A program made the position numbers and the translations under genes. A stretch of 64,000 nt of DNA from Candidatus Saccharimonadales bacterium (GTDB taxonomy: Bacteria; Patescibacteriota; Saccharimonadia; Saccharimonadales; UBA4665). The stretch lies in contig DASZYD010000013.1 in the NCBI GenBank assembly GCA_035545555.1, forward strand, positions 5,725-69,724, in the 5' to 3' direction. How positions within the stretch are numbered: position 1 is the stretch's first letter; each line of letters starts with the position of its first letter. Of this stretch, positions 1 through 64,000 are shown piece by piece. A model generated the notes under the pieces. That model worked only from the letters and a program-made list of their open reading frames with translations. It did no database searches and was not told where the DNA came from.

Positions 1-2593
<2,593 letters not shown>

Positions 2594-41265: not shown

Positions 41266-41300
41266 AACTAAGCTATTTTAGCAAACAACGCGCGCCGGTG

Positions 41301-42188
41301 CTACTGCGCTTCGCTGCGGCTGTTTTCGATGGAGCGGCGGATCATATAGAGTTCGTGCCGCCGGCCAAGCCAAAACGAGGTGAGCAGCAGCGGGATGGCA
41401 ATGAGCATCGGCTGCCAGAGGATTTCGGTCTTGCCCTGCCCGGTGCTGCCTGTGCCGCCGGTTGTCGATACCGAACCGCTGATCGTGCCGTTGGCTACAC
41501 CTACGACTTGCAGATACGCGGTAGTGCCGTTGGCGTCGGTCGCTTTGACCACGATAGTGTAGACGCCCGCCTGCTGGTACGTATGGCTCACGTTGATCAC
41601 CCCAGGGAATGAAACGCTTTTGAGGTCGTTGGCGCTGCCGTCGCCCCAGTCGAAACTGAGTGCGTACGGCCCGGTGCCGCCACTTAGGATAAACGACCAG
41701 TCGAGTGGGCTGCCCGGATCGGCGCCGCGCCGCGCATAGCTGCTGGTGATGGACACGCGCGAGCCAAATTGCGCAAATTGCGCATCATTGAATGTCACGC
41801 TGACGGTATTGGAGTCCGGCCCCTGCTGGTCGAGAGCATCATACACCCGTGCCACCAGGTCGTTGCGCCCGCTGAAGAGGTCAATCTTGAGGCTGTAGCT
41901 GCCGCCTGCACAGACTGCCGAGCCGACAAAAATGTTATTGGAAAAGATCTTAACCAGCAGCCCCGTCTTGCAAAGGCCGCTGACGGTAATCGGCGTGCTG
42001 GTAAATGTCTGCCCGTTGCTTGGCGTGGCAATGGTTGCCGCCTGTGTGGGCGCGGCTGTCGAGACAGTCGCTTCCAAGCCCATCGAGTTCGACTGCGGAT
42101 TGTCGAGCGCGGCGACGGGCGCGGCCAGTAACAGGCACGTCAGCAGAGCCAGTGCACTTGTTCGGGCGATCCATCGACGGTTCATCAC
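41301..42188 (-). CDS. secreted Ig-like + PKD-domain protein with C-terminal TM anchor
   Basis: Has a signal peptide (ALALLTCLLLAAPVAA), the PKD signature FDWGDGSANDL...VSHTYQQAGVYTIVVKATDANG and the C-terminal TM LIAIPLLLTSFWLG. Confidence 0.75.
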   Translation of the reverse strand: MMNRRWIARTSALALLTCLLLAAPVAALDNPQSNSMGLEATVSTAAPTQAATIATPSNGQTFTSTPITVSGLCKTGLLVKIFSNNIFVGSAVCAGGSYSLKIDLFSGRNDLVARVYDALDQQGPDSNTVSVTFNDAQFAQFGSRVSITSSYARRGADPGSPLDWSFILSGGTGPYALSFDWGDGSANDLKSVSFPGVINVSHTYQQAGVYTIVVKATDANGTTAYLQVVGVANGTISGSVSTTGGTGSTGQGKTEILWQPMLIAIPLLLTSFWLGRRHELYMIRRSIENSRSEAQ

Positions 42189-42247
42189 GGTTTTACTGCT
42201 TACGCTCCTGCTTCAACCTTAGCAAACCGGCCAGAAATGGCAAGCCG

Positions 42248-43252
42248 CTAGCGGCGGGTCGCCCTGCGCACCACACGCTGATTGTACCCGCGCATCAGCC
42301 GTGGGAAGCCGAAGATGAAGAACAGGATGATGAGAATGACCGCAAGCACCCCCAAAATACCCCAGATCGGAATGACATAGAATGTCGTTTGGCCGCTGAG
42401 CAATTGGCCGTCCTGGCCGAAGCCAAAGTTGCCCTCCAGCGTGTATTTGCCGAACATGCCTATATGGCTCAAGCTAACGGTGAACTTGCGAACGCTATCC
42501 GGCAACACGTTGCCGCGCGGCGTAGTGTTGTTGATCTCAAATGAGGCCAGCTGCTTTTTGCCCTGCTTGAGCAACAGCTTGCCGAACGGCTGCTCCTGGA
42601 CATCGCCGTCATTCTTAAAACGAATAGCCGCCACCAGGTTCTTGCTGCTCGTAAAGACCACGCTGGAGCTGCCGTTGTCACCCTGCTGCACACTCATGTC
42701 GGTCAGCTGCAAATCCTCCTTAAAATCGCCCGGCACGCGCACCAGGATCAGCGAGGCCACGCTGGCGGACAGCGCCACGCTGCCGCTGCCGCCACTGCTG
42801 GCCGGCGCGAAGCGCACTGCACCGTAGTAGCCGCCGCCCGGGGCATCGCTTGGAATAGTGATCGTCACCCCGACCGACTTTTCCTGCCCGGCAGCAAGCG
42901 TCACATTCGGCACCGGCGCCACGTAGCGCTTGAGGCTATGGCTTGGCGCGTACTGGTTAGGGTTGAGCAGCAGCGCCGGCGTGCCGCTCTCGTCGCCGCT
43001 AGCCGTAAAGTCATTAATAAACACCTGCAGCGTTACCGGTGCCTGTGTCACGTTCTGCACATTCACGGTCACGGTTTGCGACTGTCCGGGGTTGACGGTT
43101 ATGTTGGTGCTAACTGGCGAAATCTTCAGGCCGTTGCCGCCGGCGCTGCCGCTTGTCGCCGCTGCAGCCAGCGGTGACAAGACAGCCGACAACACTAGTA
43201 CTAATCCGGCCAGCAAACTGCTACCAAGCCCGGCGGATGTGCGACGCCTCAT
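42248..43252 (-). CDS. DUF916/DUF3324-like cell-surface protein (CscA-like), C-terminal TM anchor
   Basis: Signal peptide, then ISPVSTNITVNPGQSQTVTVNVQNVT...VTLAAGQEKSVGVTITIPSDAPGGGYYGAVRF (DUF916 grammar). A second beta domain follows, ending in the TM IWGILGVLAVILIILFFIFGF and a basic tail. Assigned from motif grammar, not from a search. Confidence 0.6.
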   Translation of the reverse strand: MRRRTSAGLGSSLLAGLVLVLSAVLSPLAAAATSGSAGGNGLKISPVSTNITVNPGQSQTVTVNVQNVTQAPVTLQVFINDFTASGDESGTPALLLNPNQYAPSHSLKRYVAPVPNVTLAAGQEKSVGVTITIPSDAPGGGYYGAVRFAPASSGGSGSVALSASVASLILVRVPGDFKEDLQLTDMSVQQGDNGSSSVVFTSSKNLVAAIRFKNDGDVQEQPFGKLLLKQGKKQLASFEINNTTPRGNVLPDSVRKFTVSLSHIGMFGKYTLEGNFGFGQDGQLLSGQTTFYVIPIWGILGVLAVILIILFFIFGFPRLMRGYNQRVVRRATRR

Positions 43253-43309
43253 ATCCTCAATCTTCCCCCATGGTTATCTAAAATCTGCTCCATTTATCGT
43301 ACCAAACCG

Positions 43310-44377
43310 CTAGAAGTTTGCCAAACACACATACGTCAGCGTTGTGGCATACACGCCCGGCGCCTGTCCCGTCGGAATATTAATGATGTAGCTGACCGTG
43401 AACTTCCGGTAATCCTGCACTGCCGTGGCCGTCGCGATCGTATCGCCGGAGACAAAGCGGAAGAAGTTTGGTTGCGCATAAGCCGGTGCCGCCGTGGCAG
43501 TGCCGGGCCCGACCGGGTTAGCGCCGACCGACGGCGTCGCGTTTGCCACCAGGTTGATCCCGAACTGGCTGAGCCCGGGCCGCGAGACGTCCGACACAGC
43601 CATGGCGCTTATGATGTTATTGCCCGACGTCATAGTATTGCCGGCCACCTGCATGACATAGCCGGAGCCGGCGTTCGTTGCCGTCAGCAGCTGGCTCTGC
43701 GCGCTGGCCGTAACCCCACCGGTAAGGTTGCCGAAATTGATATAGTTGCCGCTGGCCTGGCCACAGTCAAACCCGCCGATGGTGATGCCGCTGCAAAACA
43801 AGAGATACGGTGGCACGGTGGTAGTAACGCTGATGGCGTTGTTGATATTCATAGCGATGCCGCCGTGATCATTCTCCGCCCCGCTGGCATCAGTACTGGC
43901 AAAGGTTTGCAGGCGTCCGAAAAAGCTGCCCTGACCCGATGGATTCGTAACACCGGCCACTGTATAGCTAACGGTACCAGCCGCTGCCGGCGCTGCCGTA
44001 CGAGTCAGCACGAGGGTGTTTGCATCGGTGCCAGCGCCGTCGATCGAAAAGCCCAGTTCGCCACTCTGCGCGCTCAGCGTAGCACCGGAGATATCAAAGC
44101 CGGCCGGCGCCGGACACGGATCACCAAATAACGGATCGTTCGCACAAAACAGGAGCTTGATCGAACCAAGCGTCTCTGGGGCTGGGATATCAAAACTCAG
44201 TTTGTATGTTGCTGTGGCGCTCGCGACACTATCGCTTAGGGTAACGCTTCGGTTCGGCAACAGCGAGGCCGAGGCGTGCGCCAAGTAGAGGGAGAACAGT
44301 CCCGCCACCACGAGCAGGGCTGCCCCAATCTGTGCGGTCCGAACGCTAAGAACGGTGCTACGCCTTAGGCTGCTCAT
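43310..44377 (-). CDS. secreted beta-rich surface protein, paralogue family member A (355 aa)
   Basis: Has a signal or TM segment. It shares the N-module ATYKLSFDIP...IKLLFCANDPLFGDPCPAPAGF with the next two genes, and the C-module QFGINLVAN...GDTIA...FTVSYIINI...PGVY...F-COOH with the 263-aa protein. Confidence 0.65.
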   Translation of the reverse strand: MSSLRRSTVLSVRTAQIGAALLVVAGLFSLYLAHASASLLPNRSVTLSDSVASATATYKLSFDIPAPETLGSIKLLFCANDPLFGDPCPAPAGFDISGATLSAQSGELGFSIDGAGTDANTLVLTRTAAPAAAGTVSYTVAGVTNPSGQGSFFGRLQTFASTDASGAENDHGGIAMNINNAISVTTTVPPYLLFCSGITIGGFDCGQASGNYINFGNLTGGVTASAQSQLLTATNAGSGYVMQVAGNTMTSGNNIISAMAVSDVSRPGLSQFGINLVANATPSVGANPVGPGTATAAPAYAQPNFFRFVSGDTIATATAVQDYRKFTVSYIINIPTGQAPGVYATTLTYVCLANF

Positions 44378-44395
44378 TCATTCTATTGTAGCGTA

Positions 44396-45619
44396 CTAGA
44401 ACGTACCGGTGGCGATGAGCGATTCGCTGCCAAGATAGACGCCGGCCGGAGTAGTGTTGGCAGCAGTAGCTACGAACTCAAGCGTATTTGCCTCATTGCT
44501 GACGGCACCGGTACCAGAAAAGACTTGACTGCCGAACGTGGATGTCGTACCCGTTGTGTTGTTGCCATCCATGCCATAAAGGCTCGTAGCATTATAGGTT
44601 GCGGGGCAACTATTGGCCGTGTCGCTATAGGCTGCAGCGACGGTCGTATTGGCGCCCTTGTTAACGCACATCCCCCATGCACCAGCCCCTGCCGTAAGCG
44701 TAGTAGCATTACCGGTCAATATATTCCCTATTATAGGACAGGTCGTACCGCCATCCGAGCTAAGTCCTCCATTAGTGCACGTGTTGCCTGCTTTCATGCG
44801 TACTACCCATCCGCCGTTTGCATTCGTTGATAGCTGTGTATTAACACCCGCTATATCAACCTGCGTGGCCGTCAAGACGGTTGCTGAGCCCACGGTGTGG
44901 CCGAGCGTAATCGACGGAGCAGTCAGGGAGCCGCCACAGGTTCCCGTAATGGTTGCCGTAGTTACGCAGAACGTCATGGTTTCCTCGACCGTAGCAGTAA
45001 CGTTGATCAATGCCGCAGTGCTGAGGGCGACACCGCCTGAGTCTACGACACCCGTTGAGCCGCCGGCAGTATAACTGTCAGCATGTGCCTTCGTATCATA
45101 GGTGTACATTCGGGCATAGAAGGAGTGATTGGCTGCCACGTTCGGGTTAGTAACATTCGTTACGCTGAAGGATACGGCGCAAGGCGTCGTAGTGACGTTG
45201 ATGGCTGAAGCGGCTGATAACTCTAGCGTATGCGCGCCCGCAGCAGTACCGGTAGTGACGGTAAAGGTAGAGATGTTACAACCGGCTGTAGTGGACTGAC
45301 CAGTAACCGTTGGCGAAGCGATGGAGAAGCCGCTTGGTGCCGTGCAGGTCGTATCGGCCAATAGTGGGTCGTTATCGCAAAAGTCGACGATGATAGCCTG
45401 GATACTGGGGCTACCGGTAGAAATTGTATTAAACGAAAACTTGTACGTCACACCCGTCGCGCCGGCCGTGGCGTTGCTCATTTCTATGCTTCGAGACGTG
45501 ACCTGTGCAGCAGTAGCCGTCCCGTTCAAGACAAGCGGTACGCCCGCCGCCAGGGCCAATATAACTGCCGCCACTACTGCATAGAGGTTGCGCGAAAGCC
45601 CCTGCATGCGTTTTTTCAT
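44396..45619 (-). CDS. secreted beta-rich surface protein, paralogue family member B (407 aa)
   Basis: Has a signal peptide. The N-module is VTYKFSFNT...IIVDFCDNDPLLADTTCTAPSGF and the C-module is EETMTFCVT...TPAGVYLGSESLIATGTF-COOH. An AT-rich putative promoter region lies at 45620-45737. Confidence 0.65.
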   Translation of the reverse strand: MKKRMQGLSRNLYAVVAAVILALAAGVPLVLNGTATAAQVTSRSIEMSNATAGATGVTYKFSFNTISTGSPSIQAIIVDFCDNDPLLADTTCTAPSGFSIASPTVTGQSTTAGCNISTFTVTTGTAAGAHTLELSAASAINVTTTPCAVSFSVTNVTNPNVAANHSFYARMYTYDTKAHADSYTAGGSTGVVDSGGVALSTAALINVTATVEETMTFCVTTATITGTCGGSLTAPSITLGHTVGSATVLTATQVDIAGVNTQLSTNANGGWVVRMKAGNTCTNGGLSSDGGTTCPIIGNILTGNATTLTAGAGAWGMCVNKGANTTVAAAYSDTANSCPATYNATSLYGMDGNNTTGTTSTFGSQVFSGTGAVSNEANTLEFVATAANTTPAGVYLGSESLIATGTF

Positions 45620-45737
45620 ACTTTTTGCTATCCTTCTAGTTTTTGTATGTTCAAAGGTATCGCTCAGATCTTAGCATGTTAACCTGGAGCCTTGCAATAA
45701 AGCGTAAGGACTTATCCACAAGAATCTTAACAGAGAA

Positions 45738-48557
45738 TTAAAACGTGCCGGTCGCCACGAGAGAGTAGGCCCCAATATAGATCCCGGCTGGGGTGGTGGA
45801 TGAGGCGCTGGCGGCGAAGGTCACTATGTCGTTCTCGTTGTCTAGCGCGCCGCTGCTGGTAAAGACCGGGCTGCCGTATGCGCTTCTGACGCCTGTGGCT
45901 GTAGCATCGTCCAGGCCGTAGGCAGTACCGCTGCCGCAACTGGCGCCATTGTACGGTGCCTGCACGGTAATGCTGCCGCTGCCGGCCTGCACGCATACGC
46001 CGACAGCCGCCGTCCCGGCCGACAGCGTCGTCGCGCTACAGCTACCGCCACAGGATGTGTTGATGGCCGGGACGCCGCACGAGCTCCCGCCGTTGCTGCT
46101 CAGGCCGCCACAGCTGGCGCCGACGCGCACCATACGAACGGTCACGCCGCTCCCCGCGTTGGTCGATGTTTGCGTATAGGCGTCGGCCGTATCGACACTG
46201 CTGCTGTTGAGCACCGGCGGCGAGCCGTGCCCAAGCGTCAGGCTGGCCGGCGACAGACCGGTGCAGTTGGCGCTGATACTGCCGCCCGATACGCAAAACG
46301 TAATCGCCTCCGGCACAACAAAGGTCAGAGCGATCCCGTCGCCGGTGGAGAGGGCCATACCGCCATGATCGACCGAATCCGCCAGGTTGCCCGAGCGGGT
46401 TGTACCCGAAACGGTGTACTCGCCGGTCATATTGCCAGCGGTGTTGAAGGTGATGACACGCGCATAAAACGAGTGGTTGGCCGCCGCCGGGTTTGTCGCC
46501 GTGGTGATAGTGAAATCGATGGGCGTGCCGGTCGAAACTGTCTGTGGCGTCGCGTTGGACAATTCCAGTACCTGTGACTTTCCGGCTGCCGCCCCACCTT
46601 GCACCCCGGCTGCTGTCCAGCCGCTGCCCATGCCGCCGTTTACCGTCAGGCTCGGGCTCGCGCCGCCCCAGTCGAAGCTGGCCGGATAGGTGCAGGCAGC
46701 GTCGTTGAAAACGGGGTCATTGTCGCACATATCGACGACGATACCGCCGATGGGGGTGTTGATGGTGGGCGTAAAGACCACTTCGTAGCTGACGTTTGCC
46801 GCGCCAGGTGTCGAGGTGGTCATAGTCACACTGCGGCCCGTCGCTTGCGCATGATACTCGGGGATCAACACGACCGTGCCGTTCCCGGCCGCCGCACCCA
46901 AGTGGTTCGTCCCGGCTAGGGCAGCATGTGCCGCATCAAGCGTATTCCCGGTCCACGAGTTGGTGAGGTAGCGTATAGCAATCCGGCCGCCGCCGCCAGC
47001 TGCGCCGCCACAACCGGTAGCGCCGTTACCGCCGTTGGCGCTCATCGATCCGGATCCGGTGAACGTGTTCACATCAAGATATAGGCTGCCGCCCGAGCCA
47101 GCTGACGCGTTACATCCGCTGGCATTCGTCCCGTTGGCTGTCAGTGAGCCGTTAACGGTAAGCGTTCCATTCACCACCAACTTGATAGCACCGCCGCCGG
47201 CCGTGCCGGGGCCATTACTGTCGGAACCGCCGCCCGATCCAAGATCAAGTGGCGAAGAAGCCGACCCATAGGTGCTGCTGTTGCCGTTACCTCCGATGCC
47301 ACCATATGCACCACCTTTGGAGGTATTAACACCACCAGCCCCGCCGCCGGGGCCGACACCGTTAATCGACGTCGTTGTGCCGCCCGGATAGCCGAGCCCG
47401 TCGGCCGATATCGCGCTCGTCGCCGGCACCGTCACGTTGCCCCCAACAGTGATGGTTACCCCTGTGCCGTTTGTACTCGTCGTATTCGAGCCGCCAGCCG
47501 ATAGTGTTACTCCGGAAGCCAACGTTAGCGCATCGCTCACCGTCAATGTAAAAGCTGCTGCGCTGGCTGAAGAGAACGTCACATTCGCATTGACTGTCAC
47601 ATCGTGATACGAGAATGCCGTTTCGTCAGTCGAACGCCATGTGCCGTTGATTGCCGGAATAGTCAGATCATTCGTTCCCGTGCGCAGGATATACGCCGTA
47701 CCGTAGCCGGCAGCCGTACCGTTATGGGTAGCGCCCGGCGCAGCCGAGACAGTACCGCTAAATGTTGGCGCGTTCGTTGAGTTGAGCGAAATACGGCCGC
47801 CACCACCCGCTGCGCCGCCACAACCGGTAGCGCCGTTACCGCCAGCCACCGTAACGGTACCCGCGCCAGCGAGCGTACCGGCTATTGCCCAAATGCTGCC
47901 GCCTGAGCCGCCGGCGACGTTACATCCTGATGGTGAGCCGCCGGCGGCTGTTACAGTGCCGCTTACCGTAAGGGTACCCGAAGTGACAAGCTTAATCGCA
48001 CCGCCGCCGTTACCGGCCGGGTTGCCGTTATTGTCATAACCGCCGCCGCTTCCCATATTGGTCGGGGAGAAAATAGACCCGTAGACGGCGCCACTGCCGG
48101 CATGGCCCGCCGGGTTGCCGCCAAAACCGCCATAGCCGGCGCCGCCCGCATTATTCGTGCCGCTCCAGCCAGCACCCGGCCCTTCAGCTGTCGGCGTGCC
48201 CGAGGACCCGCCGCGGTAGCCCTTGGCATCCGCCGTCAGCGTACCGACAATACTTATCGATGTTGCGTCAATCTCCACACTGCCGTAACTGGAGCCATTA
48301 TACGCCTGTACGGTCGCCGTCTCGCCCGTGCCGATGGTTAGAGTGCCGACATTCGTATGCACGCCGGCGATGCCGCCGGGACAATCGGTGGCCGGGTCCC
48401 AGCTGGCGCCGCCATGGTCACCGCCGTTGAGACAGGTATACGAGGCACCCGCCCGGCGCTGATACAGCACCAGCGCGCCGGCCACGACCAGCACTGCCAC
48501 GACCGACAGCGCTACTACACGTATAACTCTCACCCTACGCATAAGCATTAGCTTCAA
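45738..48557 (-). CDS. large secreted surface protein: duplicated Gly-rich beta-helix-like module + paralogue family C-terminal part (939 aa)
   Basis: N-terminal TM or signal segment, two ~155-aa Gly-rich modules 270 aa apart, then VSYEVVFTPT...IVVDMCDNDPVFNDAACTYPASF ... EAITFCVS ... TPAGIYIGAYSLVATGTF-COOH. Confidence 0.7.
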   Translation of the reverse strand: MKLMLMRRVRVIRVVALSVVAVLVVAGALVLYQRRAGASYTCLNGGDHGGASWDPATDCPGGIAGVHTNVGTLTIGTGETATVQAYNGSSYGSVEIDATSISIVGTLTADAKGYRGGSSGTPTAEGPGAGWSGTNNAGGAGYGGFGGNPAGHAGSGAVYGSIFSPTNMGSGGGYDNNGNPAGNGGGAIKLVTSGTLTVSGTVTAAGGSPSGCNVAGGSGGSIWAIAGTLAGAGTVTVAGGNGATGCGGAAGGGGRISLNSTNAPTFSGTVSAAPGATHNGTAAGYGTAYILRTGTNDLTIPAINGTWRSTDETAFSYHDVTVNANVTFSSASAAAFTLTVSDALTLASGVTLSAGGSNTTSTNGTGVTITVGGNVTVPATSAISADGLGYPGGTTTSINGVGPGGGAGGVNTSKGGAYGGIGGNGNSSTYGSASSPLDLGSGGGSDSNGPGTAGGGAIKLVVNGTLTVNGSLTANGTNASGCNASAGSGGSLYLDVNTFTGSGSMSANGGNGATGCGGAAGGGGRIAIRYLTNSWTGNTLDAAHAALAGTNHLGAAAGNGTVVLIPEYHAQATGRSVTMTTSTPGAANVSYEVVFTPTINTPIGGIVVDMCDNDPVFNDAACTYPASFDWGGASPSLTVNGGMGSGWTAAGVQGGAAAGKSQVLELSNATPQTVSTGTPIDFTITTATNPAAANHSFYARVITFNTAGNMTGEYTVSGTTRSGNLADSVDHGGMALSTGDGIALTFVVPEAITFCVSGGSISANCTGLSPASLTLGHGSPPVLNSSSVDTADAYTQTSTNAGSGVTVRMVRVGASCGGLSSNGGSSCGVPAINTSCGGSCSATTLSAGTAAVGVCVQAGSGSITVQAPYNGASCGSGTAYGLDDATATGVRSAYGSPVFTSSGALDNENDIVTFAASASSTTPAGIYIGAYSLVATGTF
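46968..47435 (-). repeat. intragenic repeat copy 2 (aa ~375-530)
   Basis: The peptide is ...GGGAIKLVVNGTLTVNGSLTANGTNASGCNASAGSGGSLY...GGNGATGCGGAAGGGGRIAI, offset exactly 810 nt from copy 1. Confidence 0.85.
47778..48245 (-). repeat. intragenic repeat copy 1 (Gly-rich module, aa ~105-260 of the 939-aa protein)
   Basis: The peptide ...GGGAIKLVTSGTLTVSGTVTAAGG.PSGCNVAGGSGGSIW...GGNGATGCGGAAGGGGRISL parallels copy 2. An exact 34-nt match is found at 47810-47843 and 47000-47033. Confidence 0.85.
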
Positions 48558-48600
48558 CTATAGTGAAGCGCCAACCTGCGATCAAGCCGCCGGCCGGACG

Positions 48601-49392
48601 CTAAAAGGTACTGGTCGCCACCAGCACATGGTCCATGGTGTAGGTGCCGCCAGGCGTTACATTGCTGATGTTGATGAGGTATGAAATGGTAAAATCGGTC
48701 TCGCCAGAGCTCTTGGTCGCATGGGCGATCGTATCGCCGTTGTGATATTTAAACTGGCATGCTGTATCATACCCGCTTGCCGCCGCGCCGAAGCTAAACG
48801 TGGCATCGGGCACCTGGACAGGATTGGCGCCCAGGCTGGCAGGCAAACCGCCGCCGCAGCTGCTATTCGCCACCAAGTTGATGCCGAACTGCTCGGTTGA
48901 CGGATTTGAAGGCCCGGCAGACGACATGGCTGTCAGCAGGTGGGCGCCGTTGGCGGGCGGGTCAGCGGCGGTCACTACCTGATAGCCGCTGGCAAGGTAT
49001 GTCTTGACTGAGAAGTGAGCCAGGCCGGTGGCCGGGGTGCCGGGGCTCAATGTGCCAAGGTTAATGTTCGTGCTCGTCACTACAAATGTCAGTGACGGCG
49101 TACGGTCGGTATTGAATCCCGCCTGGGCCTGATAATTCGTGCTGGATGAGTTGCCCACGCCCGTTTCTCCGACCGAGACTTTGGCGCAATAGTTGGTAGA
49201 CTGCTCGGAGCCGCTCTGGCCGGGATCGCAGAGTGCCCCGCCGTTTCCCAGGAAGGCCTCACTTACCCCGTAGCCGCCCGAACAACTCTGCTGACCGGTA
49301 CTGCACGCCGCTGCGCCACCGGCGTCCATGCCGGCCAGCGCCGCGACCATGGCAATTGCCAGCACCAGTTTTATACACAGCTGACGCCTCAT
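48601..49392 (-). CDS. secreted beta-rich surface protein, short paralogue (263 aa)
   Basis: Signal peptide, a Cys-rich N-segment, then LTFVVTSTNINLGTL...QFGINLVAN...GDTIAHAT...FTISYLINI...PGGTYTMDHVLVATSTF-COOH. This matches the C-module of the 355-aa protein. Confidence 0.65.
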   Translation of the reverse strand: MRRQLCIKLVLAIAMVAALAGMDAGGAAACSTGQQSCSGGYGVSEAFLGNGGALCDPGQSGSEQSTNYCAKVSVGETGVGNSSSTNYQAQAGFNTDRTPSLTFVVTSTNINLGTLSPGTPATGLAHFSVKTYLASGYQVVTAADPPANGAHLLTAMSSAGPSNPSTEQFGINLVANSSCGGGLPASLGANPVQVPDATFSFGAAASGYDTACQFKYHNGDTIAHATKSSGETDFTISYLINISNVTPGGTYTMDHVLVATSTF

Positions 49393-49458
49393 GTGCCTCT
49401 ATTGTCCCGCAAGCAGGGTTAAAACTCAAATCCGTTTACGCTTGGCCGGCATTCTAGT

Positions 49459-50520
49459 ATGCTTAAGGTATATGCTCATCAGCTAATCGATGCAGCACTA
49501 ACAGATATGGACGCCGGCAACAATCCCAATTCGGCCGATGACAGCTCACTCGAGGGCTCGACCACCGTCGTAGAGCCCACAGCGGGCAGTCCTGTCGTAC
49601 CCGGTGCACCCGCCGCTGCCCCGGGGCAGCCAGCCGGCGACACGGCTACGCCTCCGACATCGCAACCCAAACGCCGCTTTTCGCTACGGTATCTTTTCCG
49701 TCGATTCAATATCTATTTGCTGGCGTTCATCCTCCTGCTCGTAGTTGCAGGCGTCGTAGGTACTATCTTCTACCTCAAATCGCAGAACGGCACCATCGGC
49801 AGCAATGTCCCCTCGCAGGCGCTGACACAAGACGAGCTGAACCAACTCGCCAACAGTGATGTAAGCGTGGGCGAGCCGCAGCACACCCTGAATGTCCAAA
49901 GCAATGCCGTCTTTGCCGGCAGCGTGCTGATGCGCGGCAACCTGCAGATCGCCGGTACTTTGCAAGTAGGCAATAACTTGGCCATCAACGGCGTGCGCGT
50001 CACCGGCAACAGCACGTTCGACGATGTGCAGATCACCCACTCGCTGTCGCTTACCGGCAACGCGTCAATCCAGGGGCAGCTCAATGTGCAGAGCAATCTG
50101 GGCGTCAATGGCACCGGCACGTTCCAGGGGGCGCTGTCCGCGCCGTCGATCACCGTGAGCGCGCTGCAGCTCAACGGCAACCTGAACCTGACTCACCACA
50201 TTACGGCCGGCGGCGGCACGCCGGCGCGCAGCAACGGCTCAGCACTGGGCGGCGGCGGCACGGCGACTGTCAGCGGGTCTGACACGGCCGGATCAGTCAA
50301 CATCAACACCGGCAGTAGCCCCGGTGTCGGCTGCTTCGTGACGATCACCTTTGCTAGTGCGTTCAACAGCACACCGCATATCGTAATCACGCCGGTCGGC
50401 GCGGCAGCCGCCGGCATCGACTATTACATTACCCGCACTACCACTACCTTCAGTATTTGTACCACCTCTGCCGCACCGGGCGGCACCTCATTCGGCTTCG
50501 ACTACCTCGCGTTCGACTAA
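49459..50520 (+). CDS. N-terminally TM-anchored fibre-like protein with beta-helical repeats and a conserved ~110-aa C-terminal domain
   Basis: Disordered N-terminus, the TM segment IYLLAFILLLVVAGVVGTIFYL, short repeats (NLQIAGTLQVGNNLAINGVRVTGNSTF...LSLTGNASIQGQLNVQSNLGVNGTGTF), and a C-terminal domain shared with the 61380..63443 protein. Confidence 0.65.
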   Translation: MLKVYAHQLIDAALTDMDAGNNPNSADDSSLEGSTTVVEPTAGSPVVPGAPAAAPGQPAGDTATPPTSQPKRRFSLRYLFRRFNIYLLAFILLLVVAGVVGTIFYLKSQNGTIGSNVPSQALTQDELNQLANSDVSVGEPQHTLNVQSNAVFAGSVLMRGNLQIAGTLQVGNNLAINGVRVTGNSTFDDVQITHSLSLTGNASIQGQLNVQSNLGVNGTGTFQGALSAPSITVSALQLNGNLNLTHHITAGGGTPARSNGSALGGGGTATVSGSDTAGSVNINTGSSPGVGCFVTITFASAFNSTPHIVITPVGAAAAGIDYYITRTTTTFSICTTSAAPGGTSFGFDYLAFD

Positions 50521-50574
50521 CCCTATATTGGCTATTTCCTCTGCCTTCCCGGCCATAGGGAACAACTTATCGCA

Positions 50575-50904
50575 TTACACTTCCAGAAACACGGTGACGA
50601 CATTGCTGTGGACCTGCATCACGCCGCCGGAAATCTTGATGCGAATCTCGCCTTCTTTGGTCTGCAGCACCAAATCGGACGAATTGAGCAGCGTGATGAA
50701 GTTGCGATGCCGCGGCAGAATATCGAACGCGCCGGTGCCGTTCACGCCGGACACACTGACCGCCTCGGCGTCGTAGAAGACCCGGAATGGCGACCAGACT
50801 TTGACATGCAACAGATCGTCAGCTGGTTTGGCAGCCTGCTTTGCGCCGGCCGGTTCGTCAACGGCGACCAACTGGCCCGTGCTGGCGTCGGTGCGCATTG
50901 CCAC
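50575..50904 (-). CDS. F-type ATPase epsilon-like subunit (beta-sandwich domain only)
   Basis: LLHVKVWSPFRVFYDAEAVSVSGVNGTGAFDILPRHRNFITLL..SDLVLQ...GEIRIKISGGVMQVHSNVVTVFLE parallels the AtpC N-domain (L.V.IV.P...F......V..P...G..GILP.H.P......G...I.......V.GGF.EV..N.V.IL). It has no C-terminal helical hairpin. Confidence 0.7.
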   Translation of the reverse strand: MAMRTDASTGQLVAVDEPAGAKQAAKPADDLLHVKVWSPFRVFYDAEAVSVSGVNGTGAFDILPRHRNFITLLNSSDLVLQTKEGEIRIKISGGVMQVHSNVVTVFLEV

Positions 50905-50930
50905 GGCCTAGAGTCTCCTCACACTGCACA

Positions 50931-53091
<2,161 letters not shown>

Positions 53092-53119
<28 letters not shown>

Positions 53120-53245
53120 GAGACAAACCCTTGCAGGGTTTTTCTCATCGGAGCTGGCGGAGTGAATCCGCCTCCCGTCTGCGACGGGACCGCCCTTGCT
53201 CTTTTCCCAAATAACCGGCTACTGATCATTTCCGTACCTCTTGGG
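53092..53245. repeat. exact 20-bp direct repeat (53092-53111 and 53226-53245) bracketing a 114-bp hairpin-rich intergenic insert
   Basis: TCATTTCCGTACCTCTTGGG occurs twice. On the coding strand it contains GGTACGGAAATGA, which is the alpha stop at one copy and the gamma ATG region at the other. The spacer holds three stem-loops: GAGACAAACCCT/AGGGTTTTTCTC, GGCGGA/TCCGCC and TCCCGTC/GACGGGA. Confidence 0.85.
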
Positions 53246-54653
53246 TGCTGGCGGTGAGGAGTTCGTCGCGTATCTGGTCGAACTGGCTATCGTCGGTCAT
53301 CTTGGCGCCGATACCCAGGGCATTCTTTTTGAGCGTCTTGATGTCGAGCACCTGGCCGTCTTTCAGATTGAGCACGATGTCCAGCATGAGCAGCTGGCTG
53401 TTGACCGAGTAGACTTCATCAGGTGCCTGGTTGAAGAGTTCGATGATGCGCTTGCCGCGCTGCAGGTCCTTTTGCGCTTCCAATGCCAGCTCGGAGCCGA
53501 AATGCGAGAACTCCTGCGCTTGCGCGTAGGCGTTAAGCGTCGAGATCGTCTGCGCCGCCAGCTGTTTCTGGCGCCTGTTTTGGCCCAAGCCGCCGACGCG
53601 CGTGACGCTGAGGCCCGTGCTGACCGCCGGCCGCATCGATTCACGGAACGTCTTCATATCCAAAATCCACTGCCCGTCGGTGATGGACATGATATTGGTC
53701 GGCAGATATCCGGTGATATCACCATCCGATGCCAGCACAATAGGCAGCGCCGTGAGCGTTTTGTGATTCGCCTTGAGCTTGCCGGCCCGTTCAAGCAGGC
53801 TGGAGTGTGCATAGAACATGTCGCCCGGGTACGAATCCCGGCCCGGCGCGCTGCCCGTGAGGAGCGCGATCTCTCGGTAGGTGTAGGCGTGACTGGTGAG
53901 GTCGTCGTAAATGATCATCACATCTTGGTCACACTTCTGCCAGAGATATTCGCCCATGGCGCAGGCCACGTACGGCGCCAGATAGCTTGTCACCAGCGAC
54001 TCAAACGTCGTCGAGACAATGACGATGGCATGCTTCATGGCATCGTTGGCAGCCAGCTTGCTGAGCAGCAGGTCAACATCGCTGCGCCGCTTGGAAATAA
54101 GCACATAGATGGCGACCACATCAGAGTCTTTTTGGTTGAGCGCCAGCTGGTAGGCCAAGGTGCTCTTGCCGGACTTGCTGTCGCCCAGCACGGCCAGGCG
54201 CTGGCCGCGCACCAGCGGGAAGAGCTCATCCAATACCATCAGGCCGGTCACCAGTTGCCTGTCCAGCGCCTCGCGCTCCTGCAGGCCCGGCGCGGCGTTA
54301 AAGACCGGCCACGTCGTATCGGCCGCAATCGGCCCCTTGCCGTCAAGCGGCTCGCCGGTTACCGAAATGACCCGGCCGATAAAATCTTTGCCTACTTTGC
54401 TGACCAGTTCGTGGTGCTGTACCACCGCCATCATGCCGGCGTGCAGGACGTTCACGCCCAGGTGGAGCACCACCACCCGGTCCTCCAGAATGTGGCGGAC
54501 AAAGCCTTTGCTGCCGTCCTCAAACATGACCAGTGCATTGACGTTCACCGGCTGCAAGCCGCGTACCTGCACCATAAATTTATCGACGGTAATCACTTCG
54601 CCGACGGGGCGGCTGCTTTCTACCAGATGGTCGAAGTGCGGATTGTCACTCAT
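53226..54653 (-). CDS. F1 ATPase alpha-like subunit (divergent, 475 aa)
   Basis: Carries P-loop GDSKSGKST (canonical GDRQTGKT), [17 protein letters not shown] (YDDLSKQAVAYR), [39 protein letters not shown] and [16 protein letters not shown] (Arg-finger context). Confidence 0.85.
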
Positions 54654-55209
54654 GCATGGCCTCCGCCGACACCGTAGCCATGGGTGCGGCTGCTGCAGCG
54701 GGGGCGTCGGCCGCGGCAGCTACCAGGCTATCGACCAACAGCTGCCGGTGGTCCTGCAAGTAGCGCCGCAGCGACAGATCAAAGTACTGGTTAGTGGTCT
54801 GTACCGTGCAGCCGGCCGCAATGCTGGGCTGCAAACCGACACGGATCAATACCGCCGGATGGATAGTTTGGCGGAACCACTGCACGATCTTCTGCAAAAA
54901 GGCCGATGATGGGTCAACCGCAAAACTCATATGTACCACCGGCGCCTGCGCGGTCGTATCTTGCAAAAAAGCTGCCAGCCGGGCGCGCGCAGCCGCGTCA
55001 AGAAGGTTCAGCCCGTTCGCCGCCGCCAGCTCATCGAGCATACGGCTGACTTTGGGCAGCTGCGCCTGCGTGGTGCCTGGGGTCCGCAGCGCCTGCTGGT
55101 GCAAGTAGTCGCTCAGTGCTGCCACCTCGCGCTTGAGGCGCGATACATCAGCCGGGGAGGTCACCAGCAACGGTAGCGTCAGAGTGCCGGGGATGGTCGT
55201 ATGTTCCAT
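54646..55209 (-). CDS. F-type ATPase delta/OSCP-like subunit (only the C-terminal domain recognisable)
   Basis: [22 protein letters not shown]...[32 protein letters not shown] parallels the AtpH C-domain (...VDPSLIGG..V..GD.V.D.S....L). It sits between the b-like and alpha-like genes, overlapping the alpha start. Confidence 0.6.
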
Positions 55210-55212
55210 AGC

Positions 55213-55839
55213 CTACGCTCCGCGGCTGATATCTTCCAATATCGCACGTTTATTCGTCTCAAGTTCGCCAAGAATGTACTCCAGCTGATCGCCCAGATTG
55301 ATCTGGTTGCCGATGGCCGTCATGAGATAATGGTTGACGATTGTCGCGGTGTTGTCGGTAAAGCGCTGGATGATCTGCGCCTTCTCGGCTGCAATCTGCT
55401 CCTGCACCTGTTTGCTCAGCTGGGCGCGCTGTTCGTCGATGGCCTGGTTCGTCTTCTGGATGGAGTCGATGGCGAGCTGCTTGGCGTCCATGATCGACTG
55501 CTCATACTTGGCAAACTCTTCCTGCAGCTTCTTGGTGATCTCCGCCTTCATGTACTCGTTCAGCTGGCTGGTCGTCAGGCGCAGGTCCTGCTGCAGAAAC
55601 ATCGCGTTCTCACCGATGATCTTCTCGAAGTGCAGGCGGCCGCGGTTGCGCAGCTCTTCGCGGAACTCGGCATTGAAGATGTGTTCGACGTCTTCCTCGG
55701 CTGCTTTGCTATAGTCGGCAACGGCTTTCTTGGCCGGGCGGACGCCGGCGGCGCTTCCCAGACGCACCGCCACCCAGACGAACGCCAGCCCTGCGGCCCC
55801 CAAGATGCCGAGCATTCCGCCGAGCCACCAAATCGTCAT
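55213..55839 (-). CDS. F-type ATPase b-like peripheral stalk subunit
   Basis: One N-terminal TM helix (WWLGGMLGILGAAGLAFVWVAV), then ~170 aa of heptad-like charged helix. Called from position and architecture, not sequence identity. Confidence 0.6.
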   Translation of the reverse strand: MTIWWLGGMLGILGAAGLAFVWVAVRLGSAAGVRPAKKAVADYSKAAEEDVEHIFNAEFREELRNRGRLHFEKIIGENAMFLQQDLRLTTSQLNEYMKAEITKKLQEEFAKYEQSIMDAKQLAIDSIQKTNQAIDEQRAQLSKQVQEQIAAEKAQIIQRFTDNTATIVNHYLMTAIGNQINLGDQLEYILGELETNKRAILEDISRGA

Positions 55840-55867
55840 GTCTTTATACCCACCGCCCTGCTTACGC

Positions 55868-56713
55868 TTATAACCTTAGTAACAAATATACCGCAAACAG
55901 ACCAATGATTAAAATGGTCACACTGGTAAGGATGATCTGGACCAGCCCGCGCACGATTGACTGCTTGGCAAGCGGGTTACGGCCGATCGAGATAATACTG
56001 CCGCGCACCCCGCTGTACAGCACACCGCCGGCGATGAGCGCGGTAATGGCCAGCACCGCCAGGCTCAGCCAAACGCGCGGTGCGCTAACCGGTTTAGCGG
56101 CGATGGAGTTGCCCGCCACCTGCAGAAAGCCGGGCAGATTGCCGGTGCCATGGCCCAGGTTCGGGTTGCCCGCCACGTTCAGATCGACCGGAATACTGCC
56201 GATGGCTACCGTCTGTTTGCCGCTGCCCGTTTGCAGCGTCGCCGTGCTCACGGTATTGCCGGCGCCGGTAAACGCAACCGCGGCTTTGCCCAGCACGATG
56301 ATCTGGCTGTTGTCGGCTTTCATGCCGACACCATTGAGCGCGGAAATGGTAATGTAATCGCCAACGCTGATAGCCCCGTTCTGGTTGCTCACCAGCACGC
56401 TGTAGCGGCCGGAGGTAGCTACATAGACCTGAGCCGTATCACCGTTGCCTGTCAGCGATAGTGGCGCGTCACTGGCCGGGATGGACACGCCGAGCATTGC
56501 GGTGTCACGGTCGTTCGTCAGCGGTATGACCTTGGTCGTATCGTGCGGATCGAGCCCTACGATCATCCCCTGCCGAATCGCCGTCCCCGCATCATAGGCC
56601 GTCACGACCGGTGACCCGCTGGTCGTCGCACTGGCAGCCACAGCCACACCGGCCGCCCCCACCGGTAAAAGGAGTACGGCAAACGCGAGTACGATACGGC
56701 GAAGCGTAAACAT
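55868..56713 (-). CDS. secreted ~200-aa beta-rich domain fused to a c-subunit-like TM hairpin (occupies the atpE slot)
   Basis: The signal peptide (LLLPVGAAGVAVAAS) is followed by a soluble domain and a C-terminal hairpin, WLSLAVLAITALIAGGVLYSGVRGSIISIGRNPLAKQSIVRGLVQIILTSVTILIIGLFAVYLLLRL. The hairpin has a GRNP loop (canonical c subunits: A-R-Q/N-P) and 34 residues from the loop Pro to the C-terminus, the same as in Bacillus-type c subunits. Neither helix contains Asp or Glu. Confidence 0.6.
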   Translation of the reverse strand: MFTLRRIVLAFAVLLLPVGAAGVAVAASATTSGSPVVTAYDAGTAIRQGMIVGLDPHDTTKVIPLTNDRDTAMLGVSIPASDAPLSLTGNGDTAQVYVATSGRYSVLVSNQNGAISVGDYITISALNGVGMKADNSQIIVLGKAAVAFTGAGNTVSTATLQTGSGKQTVAIGSIPVDLNVAGNPNLGHGTGNLPGFLQVAGNSIAAKPVSAPRVWLSLAVLAITALIAGGVLYSGVRGSIISIGRNPLAKQSIVRGLVQIILTSVTILIIGLFAVYLLLRL

Positions 56714-56742
56714 CTTACCCCAGTATAACCATGGTGCCAGAG

Positions 56743-57879
56743 CTAGGCAATGAGGCCGGCGAGCGCTTCGACGGTTCGTCGGATATCCGGCTCGGCCGTA
56801 CCACGACCCATGGTAAACCGCAGCGATGATTGTGCGGCAGCATCGCTCAGGCCCATGGCGCGCAGTACATGCGAGGGTTCTTCGTCGCTCGCCGCACAGG
56901 CCGATCCGGCAGCCGCCATGATGCCCGCTTCGTCCAGCGCCATCAGCAGCCGCTCGTTATCCTGCCCGGCCAGCGTGACATGCACATTATTCGGGAGGCG
57001 ATGGCGCCGCGAACCGTTGATGCTCGCGCCCGGCAGTTGCTCCAGCAGCTCAAAAAAGAGTGCTTGCAGCGTGCGGAGCCGGCCGGCCTCGGCAGCGCGC
57101 ATATCCTGCGCAATCTCTAGCGCTTTACAAAAGCCGATGATACCCGGCACATTCTCCGTACCGCTGCGCAGCCCCCGCTCCTGCCCACCACCATACACCA
57201 GCGGTTTGAGCGCTACGCCGGTTCGTGCCCAGAGCGCGCCTGTCTGTTTAGGCCCATAGATTTTGCCCCCATTCAGAGTGAGCAGATCCACGCCAAGCCG
57301 TGAGACATGCAGATCGAGATAATTCGCCGCCTGGGTAGCGTCGCTATGCAGATAGAGCGGTAAGCTGTTACCGCGCCGCCGCCGGCCAGCCAGCACCTGA
57401 CGCACCAGCGCCGCCACCTCGCGCAGCGGCTGAACGGCACCGACTTCGTTGTTGGCATATTGCACGCTCACCAGCACCGTATTGTCATCAATCAGCTTCT
57501 CAAGCGCCGATACGTCCAGCACACCATCGGGACGTACCGGTGCCTCGGCATGTGCGTAGGCGCGGGCCGTTGCCAGGATAGATTCGTGCTCAATGCTGCT
57601 GACGATCATCCGCGCACCCGGAAAAGCCTGCATTACGCCATGGATCGCCAGGTTGTTCGCCTCAGTGCCGCCGGCCGTAAACAAGACGTCGGCCGGTCGG
57701 GCGCCAAGCACACCGGCAACACCCGCCCGCGCCGCTTCTACGTCACGGTGCACCGCTTTGGCCGCCAGATACGTCGCCGAGGGATTGAAGAACTGCTCCC
57801 GAAAGTATGGCTGCATGGCTGCCAGCACACGCTCATCCGGCGGTGTGGCAGCAGCATAGTCAAGATAAATCGTATGCAT
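56743..57879 (-). CDS. cysteine desulfurase (class V aminotransferase, NifS/IscS-like)
   Basis: Carries FTAGGTEANN, HSDATQA, the PLP-Lys context LNGGKIYGPKQTG and the catalytic Cys loop AAGSACAAS. Confidence 0.88.
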   Translation of the reverse strand: MHTIYLDYAAATPPDERVLAAMQPYFREQFFNPSATYLAAKAVHRDVEAARAGVAGVLGARPADVLFTAGGTEANNLAIHGVMQAFPGARMIVSSIEHESILATARAYAHAEAPVRPDGVLDVSALEKLIDDNTVLVSVQYANNEVGAVQPLREVAALVRQVLAGRRRRGNSLPLYLHSDATQAANYLDLHVSRLGVDLLTLNGGKIYGPKQTGALWARTGVALKPLVYGGGQERGLRSGTENVPGIIGFCKALEIAQDMRAAEAGRLRTLQALFFELLEQLPGASINGSRRHRLPNNVHVTLAGQDNERLLMALDEAGIMAAAGSACAASDEEPSHVLRAMGLSDAAAQSSLRFTMGRGTAEPDIRRTVEALAGLIA

Positions 57880-57904: not shown

Positions 57905-58282
57905 CTACGCGCCTTGGGCAATGCGTTGCAGCTCGGTACCGACCTTGCGGGAATAAAGTTGGATGGCAGCATAGAAGTTGCGCAATTCTTCATCGCTCAG
58001 CGACTGGTATACGCTGTCGCCCTGCGACTTCACAATGCCGGTTGGCCGCACGTCATAGCGCGTGGTCATCACACGGTGCCTGCCCTGCGCATCGTTCCAT
58101 TCTTCGTGCCAGACCCAGGTGTGCGGATCCAGGCAGAAAAATTCGCGGCGTACCCCTTTCGGTACCGGGCCGAACAGCTCGCCGCCCAGGCGCGCCTCGT
58201 AGTGCAGCAGTGCCCGCTGGATGTCGGCACGGCGGCGGGCCTGCTTCTGCTCACGCGTCCGGTTCAACATGCTACGCAGCAC
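57905..58282 (-). CDS. hypothetical protein (125 aa)
   Basis: An ORF with a plausible basic N-terminus and a Trp-rich core (FFCLDPHTWVWHEEWND). No family recognised. Confidence 0.45.
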   Translation of the reverse strand: MLRSMLNRTREQKQARRRADIQRALLHYEARLGGELFGPVPKGVRREFFCLDPHTWVWHEEWNDAQGRHRVMTTRYDVRPTGIVKSQGDSVYQSLSDEELRNFYAAIQLYSRKVGTELQRIAQGA

Positions 58283-63443: not shown

Positions 63444-63516
63444 GTTTGTTTCTCCACAGCGCTCACCCGGTGGCTGCCGCTTATGCTGTTCGTGAATATT
63501 ATATACATATGGACCG

Positions 63517-64000
63517 TTAGCGCAATGTAAAGTACAGCACAACAGCCGCAACCGCAACGATAAGGCAGGCAGTTGCCATCACCTGCGTCAGCGTACGCAG
63601 GATTGAGCGGCGTGCCAGGGGGTTCCGGCCCATTGCAACAATACTGGCATGGATAGCGCCATAGATCAGGGCTATGAGCGCACCGACCGACACAACCGCG
63701 ATAACAAAGCTCAGCACGGCGCGCAACGCCGAAACCTGGTGGCCGGCAACAACTGCCGCGACCGACTGTAGGTTGGCGATCACGCCAGATTGTTCGGACG
63801 CCGCTATGCCCGATCCGACCAGAATCGCTACCGGGATTGAGCCGACATGTACGGTCTGTGTCCCGCCGGCAACCTTTGGCACCTGATAGGTTACCGGCGA
63901 CGTGCCCGCAGAGAAGTCCGCTTCAGCAGTACCGATTGTGTACAAACCAACCGCCGCCTTCATCCCAATGCCCGCTATCGGCGAGACCGATATACGATCG
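63517..64000 (-). CDS. second paralogue of the secreted-domain + c-subunit-like hairpin protein (5' end outside window)
   Basis: The frame stays open to the window edge (...DRISVSPIAGIGMKAAVGLYTIGTA, compare GDYITISALNGVGMKADNSQIIVLGKA in 55868..56713). It shares GSIPV..LV and the C-terminal hairpin ...ALIALIYGAIHASIVAMGRNPLARRSILRTLTQVMATACLIVAVAAVVLYFTLR. Confidence 0.65.
   Translation of the reverse strand, partial: DRISVSPIAGIGMKAAVGLYTIGTAEADFSAGTSPVTYQVPKVAGGTQTVHVGSIPVAILVGSGIAASEQSGVIANLQSVAAVVAGHQVSALRAVLSFVIAVVSVGALIALIYGAIHASIVAMGRNPLARRSILRTLTQVMATACLIVAVAAVVLYFTLR

Follow-up and report, generated by a model that had tools for sequence, protein, structure and literature searches.

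N-ATPases are F-type ATPases that keep subunit a and a subunit c with a Na+-binding carboxylate, and that have AtpQ and AtpR in addition. In mycoplasmas, 'F1-like X0' ATPases of Type 2 (G1, gliding) and Type 3 (MIB-MIP) were reportedly distinguished by Beven et al. in 2012. The mycoplasma systems are encoded by clusters of seven genes that include counterparts of alpha, beta, gamma and epsilon and no a or c, are linked genetically to cell-surface machinery and are thought to pass ATP-derived force across the membrane; they have been described as mycoplasma-specific (PMC12994834). Here we analyze an F-type ATPase operon in a 64-kb stretch of DNA from a Candidatus Saccharimonadales bacterium (contig DASZYD010000013.1), the whole of which is called the window below. 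The first gene of this operon, gene X, encodes a signal peptide, an exported domain and a C-terminal membrane hairpin that is homologous to F-type c subunits. [quoted passage not shown] With moderate confidence, we read X as a c-subunit derivative that stands in for a and c, the two Fo genes, in a divergent, CPR-specific F-type ATPase operon.

Gene X and its parts are located as follows, with residue numbers of the protein and lengths in amino acids (aa).

55868..56713, minus strand: gene X, a 281-aa fusion of a signal peptide, a phage-cement-like ectodomain and a c-subunit-like hairpin.
56633..56713, minus strand: signal peptide, residues ~1-27, with the N-terminus MFTLRRIVLAFAVLLLPVGAAGVAVA/AS and an AVA/AS cleavage-type site.
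56132..56632, minus strand: beta-rich extracytoplasmic domain, residues ~28-194, with a predicted phage capsid cement/decoration fold (Foldseek, Pfam).
56084..56131, minus strand: amphipathic helix (AlphaFold2, residues 195-205), then a linker into the first membrane helix.
55871..56083, minus strand: C-terminal c-subunit-like hairpin, residues 211-281 (AlphaFold2, profiles, Foldseek).
55973..55984, minus strand: invariant loop G244-R245-N246-P247, the counterpart of the R-Q/N-P loop of c subunits, read as GGC CGT AAC CCG on the reverse complement.
55919..55921, minus strand: V265, 18 residues after the loop proline (P+18), at the position of the ion-binding Asp/Glu of c subunits; hydrophobic family-wide.

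An identical protein has been deposited from a Candidatus Saccharimonadales metagenome-assembled genome as HVU59456.1 (locus VHC98_01305), under the NCBI name hypothetical protein. An earlier note, made from the DNA letters, had described a c-like fusion at 55868-56713, and every element that it described is present. The AlphaFold2 model of X, built on 56 homologues, has a mean pLDDT (predicted local distance difference test) of 86. It starts with a hydrophobic helix (residues 2-20) and a low-pLDDT linker (24-31), which together with the AVA/AS site agree with the cleavable-looking signal peptide that had been proposed. A beta-rich domain (37-182), the amphipathic helix (195-205) and two long helices (211-245 and 247-280) follow, in line with the description of a soluble domain and two transmembrane (TM) helices. 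Within the hairpin, TM1 spans residues ~213-236, the cytoplasmic loop ~237-256 and TM2 ~257-279. The motif S-I-G-R-N-P, described as the connecting loop, is the junction of the two long helices. The signal peptide and the positive charge of the inside loop both fit a topology with the N-terminus outside and the R-N-P loop inside. The by-eye comparison with a Bacillus c subunit was also accurate, as 34 residues follow the loop proline up to the C-terminus in both X and the Bacillus PS3 c subunit, and I-I-G occupies P+22..24 in both. A promoter-like TTGCCT-17 nt-TATACT (nt, nucleotides) is found in the 29-nt gap 5' of the X start codon (56722-56750, minus strand); the number of promoter-like sites in the region is not above chance.

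The relation of the hairpin to c subunits was examined by profile and fold comparison. Neither X nor its hairpin alone gave an ATP-synt_C match with Pfam and NCBIfam, even at E<=10, and a hidden Markov model (HMM) of the X-orthologue hairpins found no c subunit among the PDB sequences. Profiles were aligned with hhalign to 11 reference c subunits, whose alignment was validated against the PDB. The X-orthologue hairpins matched this set with 29% probability, with a score of 23.5 compared with 9.6 +/- 2.1 (maximum 17.6) for column-shuffled controls, and a more diverse X hairpin alignment reached 46%, in the register that the earlier note had proposed. A distant X subfamily from contigs of low guanine-plus-cytosine (GC) content, reached through the protein P0280 and identical to X in architecture, gave far higher values. 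Its hairpin profile (A4) aligned with the X hairpin at 98% (E 2.8e-13) and with the c subunits at 91.9% (E 7e-7, 48 columns), the latter with a score of 37.7 against 9.8 +/- 2.4 (maximum 16.8) for the shuffled controls. Searched with HMMER against 177,635 PDB sequences, A4 had six best matches that were all F-type c subunits, at E 5e-4 to 0.01. One distant member, P0363, scores 19.1 bits with Pfam ATP-synt_C, below the threshold of 24, and carries the JGI annotation 'ATP synthase membrane subunit c'. In the opposite direction, the top 40 matches of a c-subunit HMM among the 4206 open reading frames (ORFs) of 80 low-GC metagenomic loci were all X-family proteins. In the Pfam and PDB sequence searches, similarity to ATP-synt_C was not seen with X by itself and emerged through the profiles of the distant subfamily. 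A hairpin-only AlphaFold model (pLDDT 95) was compared with the PDB using Foldseek. Ranks 1-49 were all c subunits, with TM-scores of 0.8-0.9 and root-mean-square deviations of 1.2-1.8 A over 66-68 columns, and the first non-c structure appeared at rank 50. Sequence profile and fold both show the hairpin to be a homologue of c subunits, and X probably works as a ring subunit, to judge from its sequence.

X shares with the F-type c subunits (PF00137, COG0636) a hairpin of two membrane helices of equal length, an R-Q/N-P cytoplasmic loop at the same distance from the C-terminus, a first helix richer than the second in small residues, an outside N-terminus with an inside loop, and a gene that adjoins b in an F-type operon. 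Unlike c subunits, it is fused to a signal peptide and a ~170-aa exported domain, has no partner a subunit nearby and stays below the Pfam threshold. The sharpest difference concerns the ion-binding site. At P+18, Asp or Glu is present in every reference c subunit (11 of 11) and in none of the 362 family hairpins (0/362), where the residue is L, I, V, F, A or M. In X, it is V265, flanked by T263, S264 and T266, just as had been read by eye, and an hhalign alignment without gaps arrives at this register too. Helix 2 carries acidic residues only at P+12 (the position of Q259, near the cytoplasmic boundary), in ~10% of the sequences. X falls outside ATP-synt_C, as the defining carboxylate is absent and the profile threshold is missed.

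The family is large and uniform. There are at least 1171 X relatives at 90% clustering, and at 50% clustering the hairpin profile matches 715 clusters, always at the extreme C-terminus of a protein of 255-340 aa, so that the fusion architecture is constant across them. Stand-alone short versions of the hairpin were looked for among the cluster representatives and discarded, every short match being a fragment. An X relative is encoded in 367 GTDB species genomes, the best 80 of which are nearly all labelled Saccharibacteria or Saccharimonadales. Residues G244, R245, N246, P247 and A249 are invariant in the X orthologues. G-R-N-P is kept in 56/56 orthologues and in the distant low-GC subfamily, and with A249 it forms the most conserved stretch of the whole protein. 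The X proteins of the two CPR lineages are ~30% identical, with the gene order still kept. A scan of viral contigs returned a single partial and insignificant match to X, which argues that X is not phage-borne; a PHROGs search with X gave weak matches only.

The genes that follow X form a tight operon on the minus strand, in the order X-b-delta-alpha-gamma-beta-epsilon.

55213..55839, minus strand: b-like peripheral-stalk subunit, 208 aa, recognized by position and by one N-terminal membrane helix followed by a coiled coil.
54646..55209, minus strand: delta/OSCP-like subunit, 187 aa (PF00213 E 4e-4, TIGR01145 E 9.5e-5, both below curated thresholds).
53226..54653, minus strand: divergent F1 alpha, 475 aa (377.9 bits, atpA cut-off 484).
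52241..53119, minus strand: F1 gamma, 292 aa (75.6, cut-off 194).
50931..52244, minus strand: F1 beta, 437 aa (449.5, atpD cut-off 462.9).
50575..50904, minus strand: epsilon, 109 aa, with the beta-sandwich domain only and no C-terminal helical (inhibitory) domain.

With the delta-like protein at 22.7 against an equivalog cut-off of 57.5, alpha, beta, gamma and delta are all below their NCBIfam equivalog cut-offs. The b-like protein had a weak match to TIGR03321 (alt_F1F0_F0_B, E 0.004) and none to Pfam ATP-synt_B. The beta subunit has intact Walker A and catalytic GER motifs, is ~50% identical to Bacillus PS3 beta over the core and reads NELSAAD in place of DELSEED; it is short, at 437 aa. 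Among the subunits looked up, only alpha and beta carry names at NCBI ('sodium-transporting two-sector ATPase' and 'F0F1 ATP synthase subunit beta', respectively), and X, b, delta and epsilon are 'hypothetical'.

Synteny was compared in the 80 best loci of the 367 GTDB genomes and in metagenomic contigs. The order metRS-tatD-p125-cysteine desulfurase-X-b-delta-alpha-gamma-beta-epsilon is found in the GTDB loci with enough flank and in five metagenomic loci (L001-L005), and X with the F1 operon also at L089, L092 and L093. In the low-GC lineage, X lies upstream of ATPase genes in 34 of the 36 informative loci. Four low-GC CPR contigs (L133, L137, L141 and L094) have a gene for iPGM (phosphoglycerate mutase) between X and the b-like gene, and in two others (L138, L139) the gene right after X is alpha, without an intervening b or delta. 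P0363, whose gene adjoins iPGM, was considered as a member without ATPase context and set aside; because iPGM sits between X and b at other loci, its contig probably just ends early. Around the low-GC operon lie sugar-metabolism genes, with no pam pilus genes and few fibre genes, so that the link to surface filaments described below is lineage-specific, and the X-ATPase unit itself is ancient within CPR. The c-subunit relation of the hairpin that the earlier note had put forward is supported by these comparisons: similarity was found in profile and in fold, the homologues sit upstream of b, delta and alpha in all GTDB loci with enough flank and in most low-GC loci, and no pilin family fits in Pfam or Foldseek.

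We searched for the missing Fo subunits in the +/-10 kb neighbourhoods of ~170 related loci and in the 64-kb window. A motif scan showed no a or c gene in the operon or elsewhere in the window, where the only R-N-P hairpins belong to X and to a paralogue, X2, at the window edge. The motif R-L-x-x-N of subunit a (PF00119), with its conserved Arg, is absent from the related loci, the c-subunit HMM found no stand-alone c in the GTDB and low-GC loci, and in the ~170 loci the 4 kb on either side of X hold no gene for a conserved polytopic membrane protein. Gaps of 1-3 kb between the desulfurase gene and X were inspected as a hiding place for a or c and rejected, as they hold unrelated genes, mostly on the opposite strand (UDP-glucose pyrophosphorylase-like, GDPD and transposase genes). 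With no a, no c and sub-threshold F1 scores, the operon falls outside the canonical F1Fo type. In c subunits, the R-Q/N-P loop docks gamma and epsilon. A hairpin that keeps this loop and has lost the carboxylate, in an operon without a, is what would be expected if coupling to F1 were retained and ion translocation abandoned. As far as its sequences tell, a complex built on X is probably unable to draw on or build up an ion gradient by the usual means.

By architecture, the closest known analogue of this operon is the mycoplasma Type 2/3 'F1-like X0' ATPase. Both are seven-gene clusters with F1-like genes, without a or c and next to genes for surface structures. The mycoplasma systems include a membrane protein of 12 helices plus a small cytoplasmic one and are without b and delta, whereas the CPR operon has b-like and delta-like genes and no polytopic protein near X; the alpha and beta of the window also score higher on canonical F1 models than on the MMOB/MSC models. 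The mycoplasma two-helix protein resembles X in architecture, going by its description (PMC12994834). The mycoplasma ATPases share their genomes with an essential canonical F1Fo of Type 1; for the X-type operon, the evidence on such a co-existence is indirect, namely its insertion or deletion relative to Southlakia, whose canonical operon is at another locus (see below). The likeness to the N-ATPases, or alternate F1F0 ATPases (TIGR03305, TIGR03321, TIGR03324), lies in a divergent F-type operon, in the CPR case putatively a second one alongside a canonical one, and in sub-threshold matches of the b, alpha, beta and gamma of the window to the 'alt_F1F0' models. Unlike an N-ATPase operon, the X-type operon is without a, a carboxylate-bearing c, AtpQ and AtpR.

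If X does stand in for a and c, it would oligomerize into a c-ring-like assembly in which the R-N-P loops bind gamma and epsilon and the N-terminal domains crown the membrane on its outer face. Since it has neither the carboxylate nor an a subunit, the complex would neither be driven by H+ or Na+ nor pump them in the canonical manner. It would be a motor that hydrolyses ATP, or an ATPase tethered to the membrane, in which F1 may rotate the X ring, or put it under strain, against the stator of b and delta, with a mechanical output that reaches the outside by way of the crown. A tail-fibre-like membrane protein and/or the Pam pilus, both encoded beside the operon, would be the likely recipients in Saccharimonadia. 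The c-ring lumen of V-ATPases houses single membrane helices of accessory proteins; by analogy, one may speculate that the membrane helix of the fibre-like protein sits in or on the X ring. The full form of this proposal, a rotary motor without subunit a and without the carboxylate, with an extracellular crown and output, present in Saccharimonadia and at least one low-GC class and being the sole F-type ATPase in some of them, is tentative, and we regard it as possible but rather doubtful.

Several points weigh against the replacement of a and c by X and against a surface output. The X orthologues alone resemble c subunits weakly (29-46% with hhalign, no Pfam match), and the proposed c-subunit homology of the X hairpin is reached by transitivity through the distant subfamily. 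The share of small residues in TM1 is 0.38, compared with 0.58 in helix 1 of c subunits. Hairpins of type IV secretion pilins have also been matched to the c-subunit fold elsewhere (supplement of PMC10633639), so that fold similarity alone is not decisive; because of this caution, we gave the chain of sequence profiles and the operon context more weight than the fold match. In a ring, 8-15 ectodomains of ~170 aa would crowd the inner ring helices, and the 28-residue linker would have to fan them outwards. There is no a subunit nearby to hold the b stator beside the ring, and the absence of a and c holds for the neighbourhoods and the window only. X2 has no F1 genes of its own. Finally, the low-GC operon, with its iPGM insertion, lies among sugar-metabolism genes without the fibre/Pam genes of Saccharimonadia, and for this reason the idea of a surface output does not generalize.

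X, whether or not it forms a ring, might be a static anchor that tethers an F1-type ATPase without sustained rotation, acting as an energizer of Pam or fibre assembly or export, or as a regulated ATP sink. We consider this unlikely, although it is the best of the alternatives. There is no a subunit near X to define a rotor-stator interface, but the operon still has gamma, epsilon, b and delta, a complete shaft and stator that a non-rotary enzyme would not need. The epsilon subunit without its inhibitory C-terminal domain fits a static anchor, as does the mycoplasma Type 3 analogue, which is likewise without shown rotation and whose mechanism is described as unknown; yet the part of X that is most conserved is the R-N-P loop expected to dock gamma and epsilon. 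The operon adjoins the pam operon and fibre genes. For Pam, however, a recent preprint proposes assembly by Sec and chaperones, with no dedicated trans-envelope machine (10.64898/2026.03.03.709456).

The replacement of a and c by X can also be set against a split operon, an explanation that we place next and to which we give a low probability. An ordinary ion-coupled F1Fo would then have its a and c elsewhere in the genome, and X would be an accessory assembly factor or regulator near Fo. The scope of the a/c search, confined to locus neighbourhoods and the window, leaves room for this, and surveys of soil Saccharibacteria report the F-type ATPase as 'nearly complete' or of 'varied completeness' (PMC10413278, PMC8407418). 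Canonical a and c are present in other Saccharibacteria, namely Southlakia and the rhodopsin-bearing lineages. The comparison with Southlakia epibionticum nevertheless speaks against a split. Its genome has a complete canonical operon, AtpZ-a-c-b-delta-alpha-gamma-beta-epsilon, with its own b-to-epsilon set and at a different locus, and its cysteine desulfurase gene is followed directly by YdcF-MnmA-AlaRS. At this desulfurase-mnmA site, the window holds (at 40213-57879) a ~16-kb block with the X-type ATPase, the fibre gene and pam that is absent in Southlakia. Because the canonical operon of Southlakia sits intact elsewhere and the site is empty, the X-type operon is not a positional orthologue of the canonical one, and it is better seen as a separate unit than as one half of a split operon. 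X is moreover itself a c homologue, at the a/c position beside b in ~170 loci, and alpha and beta are below the equivalog cut-offs.

A decaying remnant of an ATP synthase, with a degenerated c, a lost a and a non-functional complex, is very improbable. CPR genomes are reduced and the canonical ATP synthase is dispensable in Southlakia (PMC10633639), but all seven genes are intact in hundreds of species, G-R-N-P is invariant, the Walker A and GER motifs are retained, and the fusion is the same in all 715 clusters. Least probable of all is an incidental ATPase neighbourhood, in which X would be a surface protein of a kind general to CPR, anchored by two pilin-like helices, since the gene order is kept across two lineages at ~30% X identity and the profile and fold searches yield c subunits and not pilins. 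In favour of this reading are the X2 operon without F1 genes, a weak PF18895 (T4SS_pilin) match of X2 (E 0.42) and the occurrence of the ectodomain fold in other surface/fibre proteins. Pilin-like hairpins (VirB2/TrbC, PF18895) had been tried as the family of the X hairpin and were rejected, the X2 match being the sole one, with no pilin in the Foldseek top 50 and an ATPase operon as the context.

We found in the literature no description of an X-type ATPase variant in CPR bacteria, nor any statement on a and c in these lineages, and the X-type ATPase is apparently undescribed. Annotation pipelines, like metabolic surveys, would count an operon of this kind, present in hundreds of species, as an ATP synthase. 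Should the complex assemble as proposed above, the metabolic reconstructions of these lineages would need revising, there would be a natural c-ring that has lost ion coupling and gained an external domain, and non-canonical F1-like motors acting at the surface would no longer be confined to mycoplasmas. A motor with an extracellular output, if true, would help to explain why an 'ATP synthase' is kept by bacteria without a respiratory chain. The X-type ATPase is also a concrete candidate for an energy-linked partner of the Pam pilus and of the adjacent fibre protein, and a cultivated host for such work exists in Ca. Mycosynbacter amalyticus.

The exported domain of X points to another protein family. 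By its predicted structure, the X ectodomain belongs to the phage capsid cement/decoration fold. Foldseek matched it in the PDB to phage capsid cement/decoration proteins at E ~1e-4, including those of Pam3, Borrelia phage BB1, Sf11, T1, HFTV1 and TW1 and lambda gpD/SHP. In BFVD, there were 48 matches at E<=1e-3 (best 8e-8), among them preneck appendage, DUF2190 decoration, capsid-fibre and collagen-repeat fibre proteins. The ectodomain of the window X has no Pfam match. In other family members the similarity extends to the sequence: PF23982 (XM1 gp53 minor capsid) scores 33.8 bits in the paralogue P0126, above its threshold of 27, and is weakly matched in 5 of the 56 X orthologues, and PF22758 (Phage_cement) is matched in one. 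X has its predicted ectodomain fold in common with the phage cement/decoration proteins (PF23982, PF22758 E217 gp24/Pam3 gp6, DUF2190, lambda gpD/SHP). Unlike them, it is cellular, exported by a signal peptide, anchored in the membrane and essentially absent from viral contigs.

The surface genes downstream of the operon and the X2 region at the window edge are the following.

49459..50520, plus strand: tail-fibre-like membrane protein, 353 aa, convergent with epsilon in 52/52 loci with flank.
41301..49392, minus strand: complete-looking Pam pilus operon (NCBIfam).
48601-49392, minus strand: PamT (283.8 bits, cut-off 240).
45738-48557, minus strand: Pam pilin paralogue.
44396-45619 and 43310-44377, minus strand: Pam pilin C-terminal domains (NCBIfam).
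42248-43252, minus strand: membrane-anchored WxLIP_PGBD protein.
41301-42188, minus strand: PKD protein.
61380-63557, minus strand: p725, a 725-aa membrane-anchored fibre-like protein, directly downstream of X2.
63520..64000, minus strand: X2, a paralogue of X that repeats its ectodomain motif and has a G-R-N-P hairpin, the ORF being open at the window end.

The protein at 49459..50520 consists of a cytoplasmic N-terminal part rich in Pro, a single membrane helix, a beta-helix like that of bactofilins and a C-terminal domain in common with p725. It probably corresponds to what the Pam preprint (10.64898/2026.03.03.709456) calls the 'tail fibre-like protein'. That preprint, of June 2026, reports the solved structure of the Pam pili of Ca. 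Mycosynbacter amalyticus; in its available part, the neighbouring ATPase genes are treated as an ATP-producing ATP synthase, and nothing was found on X or on the lack of a and c (10.64898/2026.03.03.709456). The Pam system (NCBIfam NF058579, NF058581) is a conserved neighbour of the X-type operon in Saccharimonadia only, whereas the low-GC lineage has the X-type ATPase without pam genes.

The pairing of X2 with a fibre-like gene is repeated in L089, where the epsilon gene is followed by a 3779-aa fibre-like relative. The giant fibre-like proteins carry a segment (L089 14572-14679) that is ~50% identical to the conserved motif N-G-x-I-x-x-G-D...G-V-G-M of the X ectodomain (residues 98-133 of X). 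The sequences suggest that X and its putative fibre partners share a module. In X2, the ATG at 63963 is internal, and the X2 family is small (13 matches).

Between tatD and the cysteine desulfurase gene, the ORFs at 57905-58282 (125 aa) and 58272-58934, both on the minus strand, have no family match; the 125-aa protein is kept in nearly all related loci. At the matching place in Southlakia, paired by position only, SEML1_0661 and SEML1_0662 have essential/growth-defect calls in transposon data.

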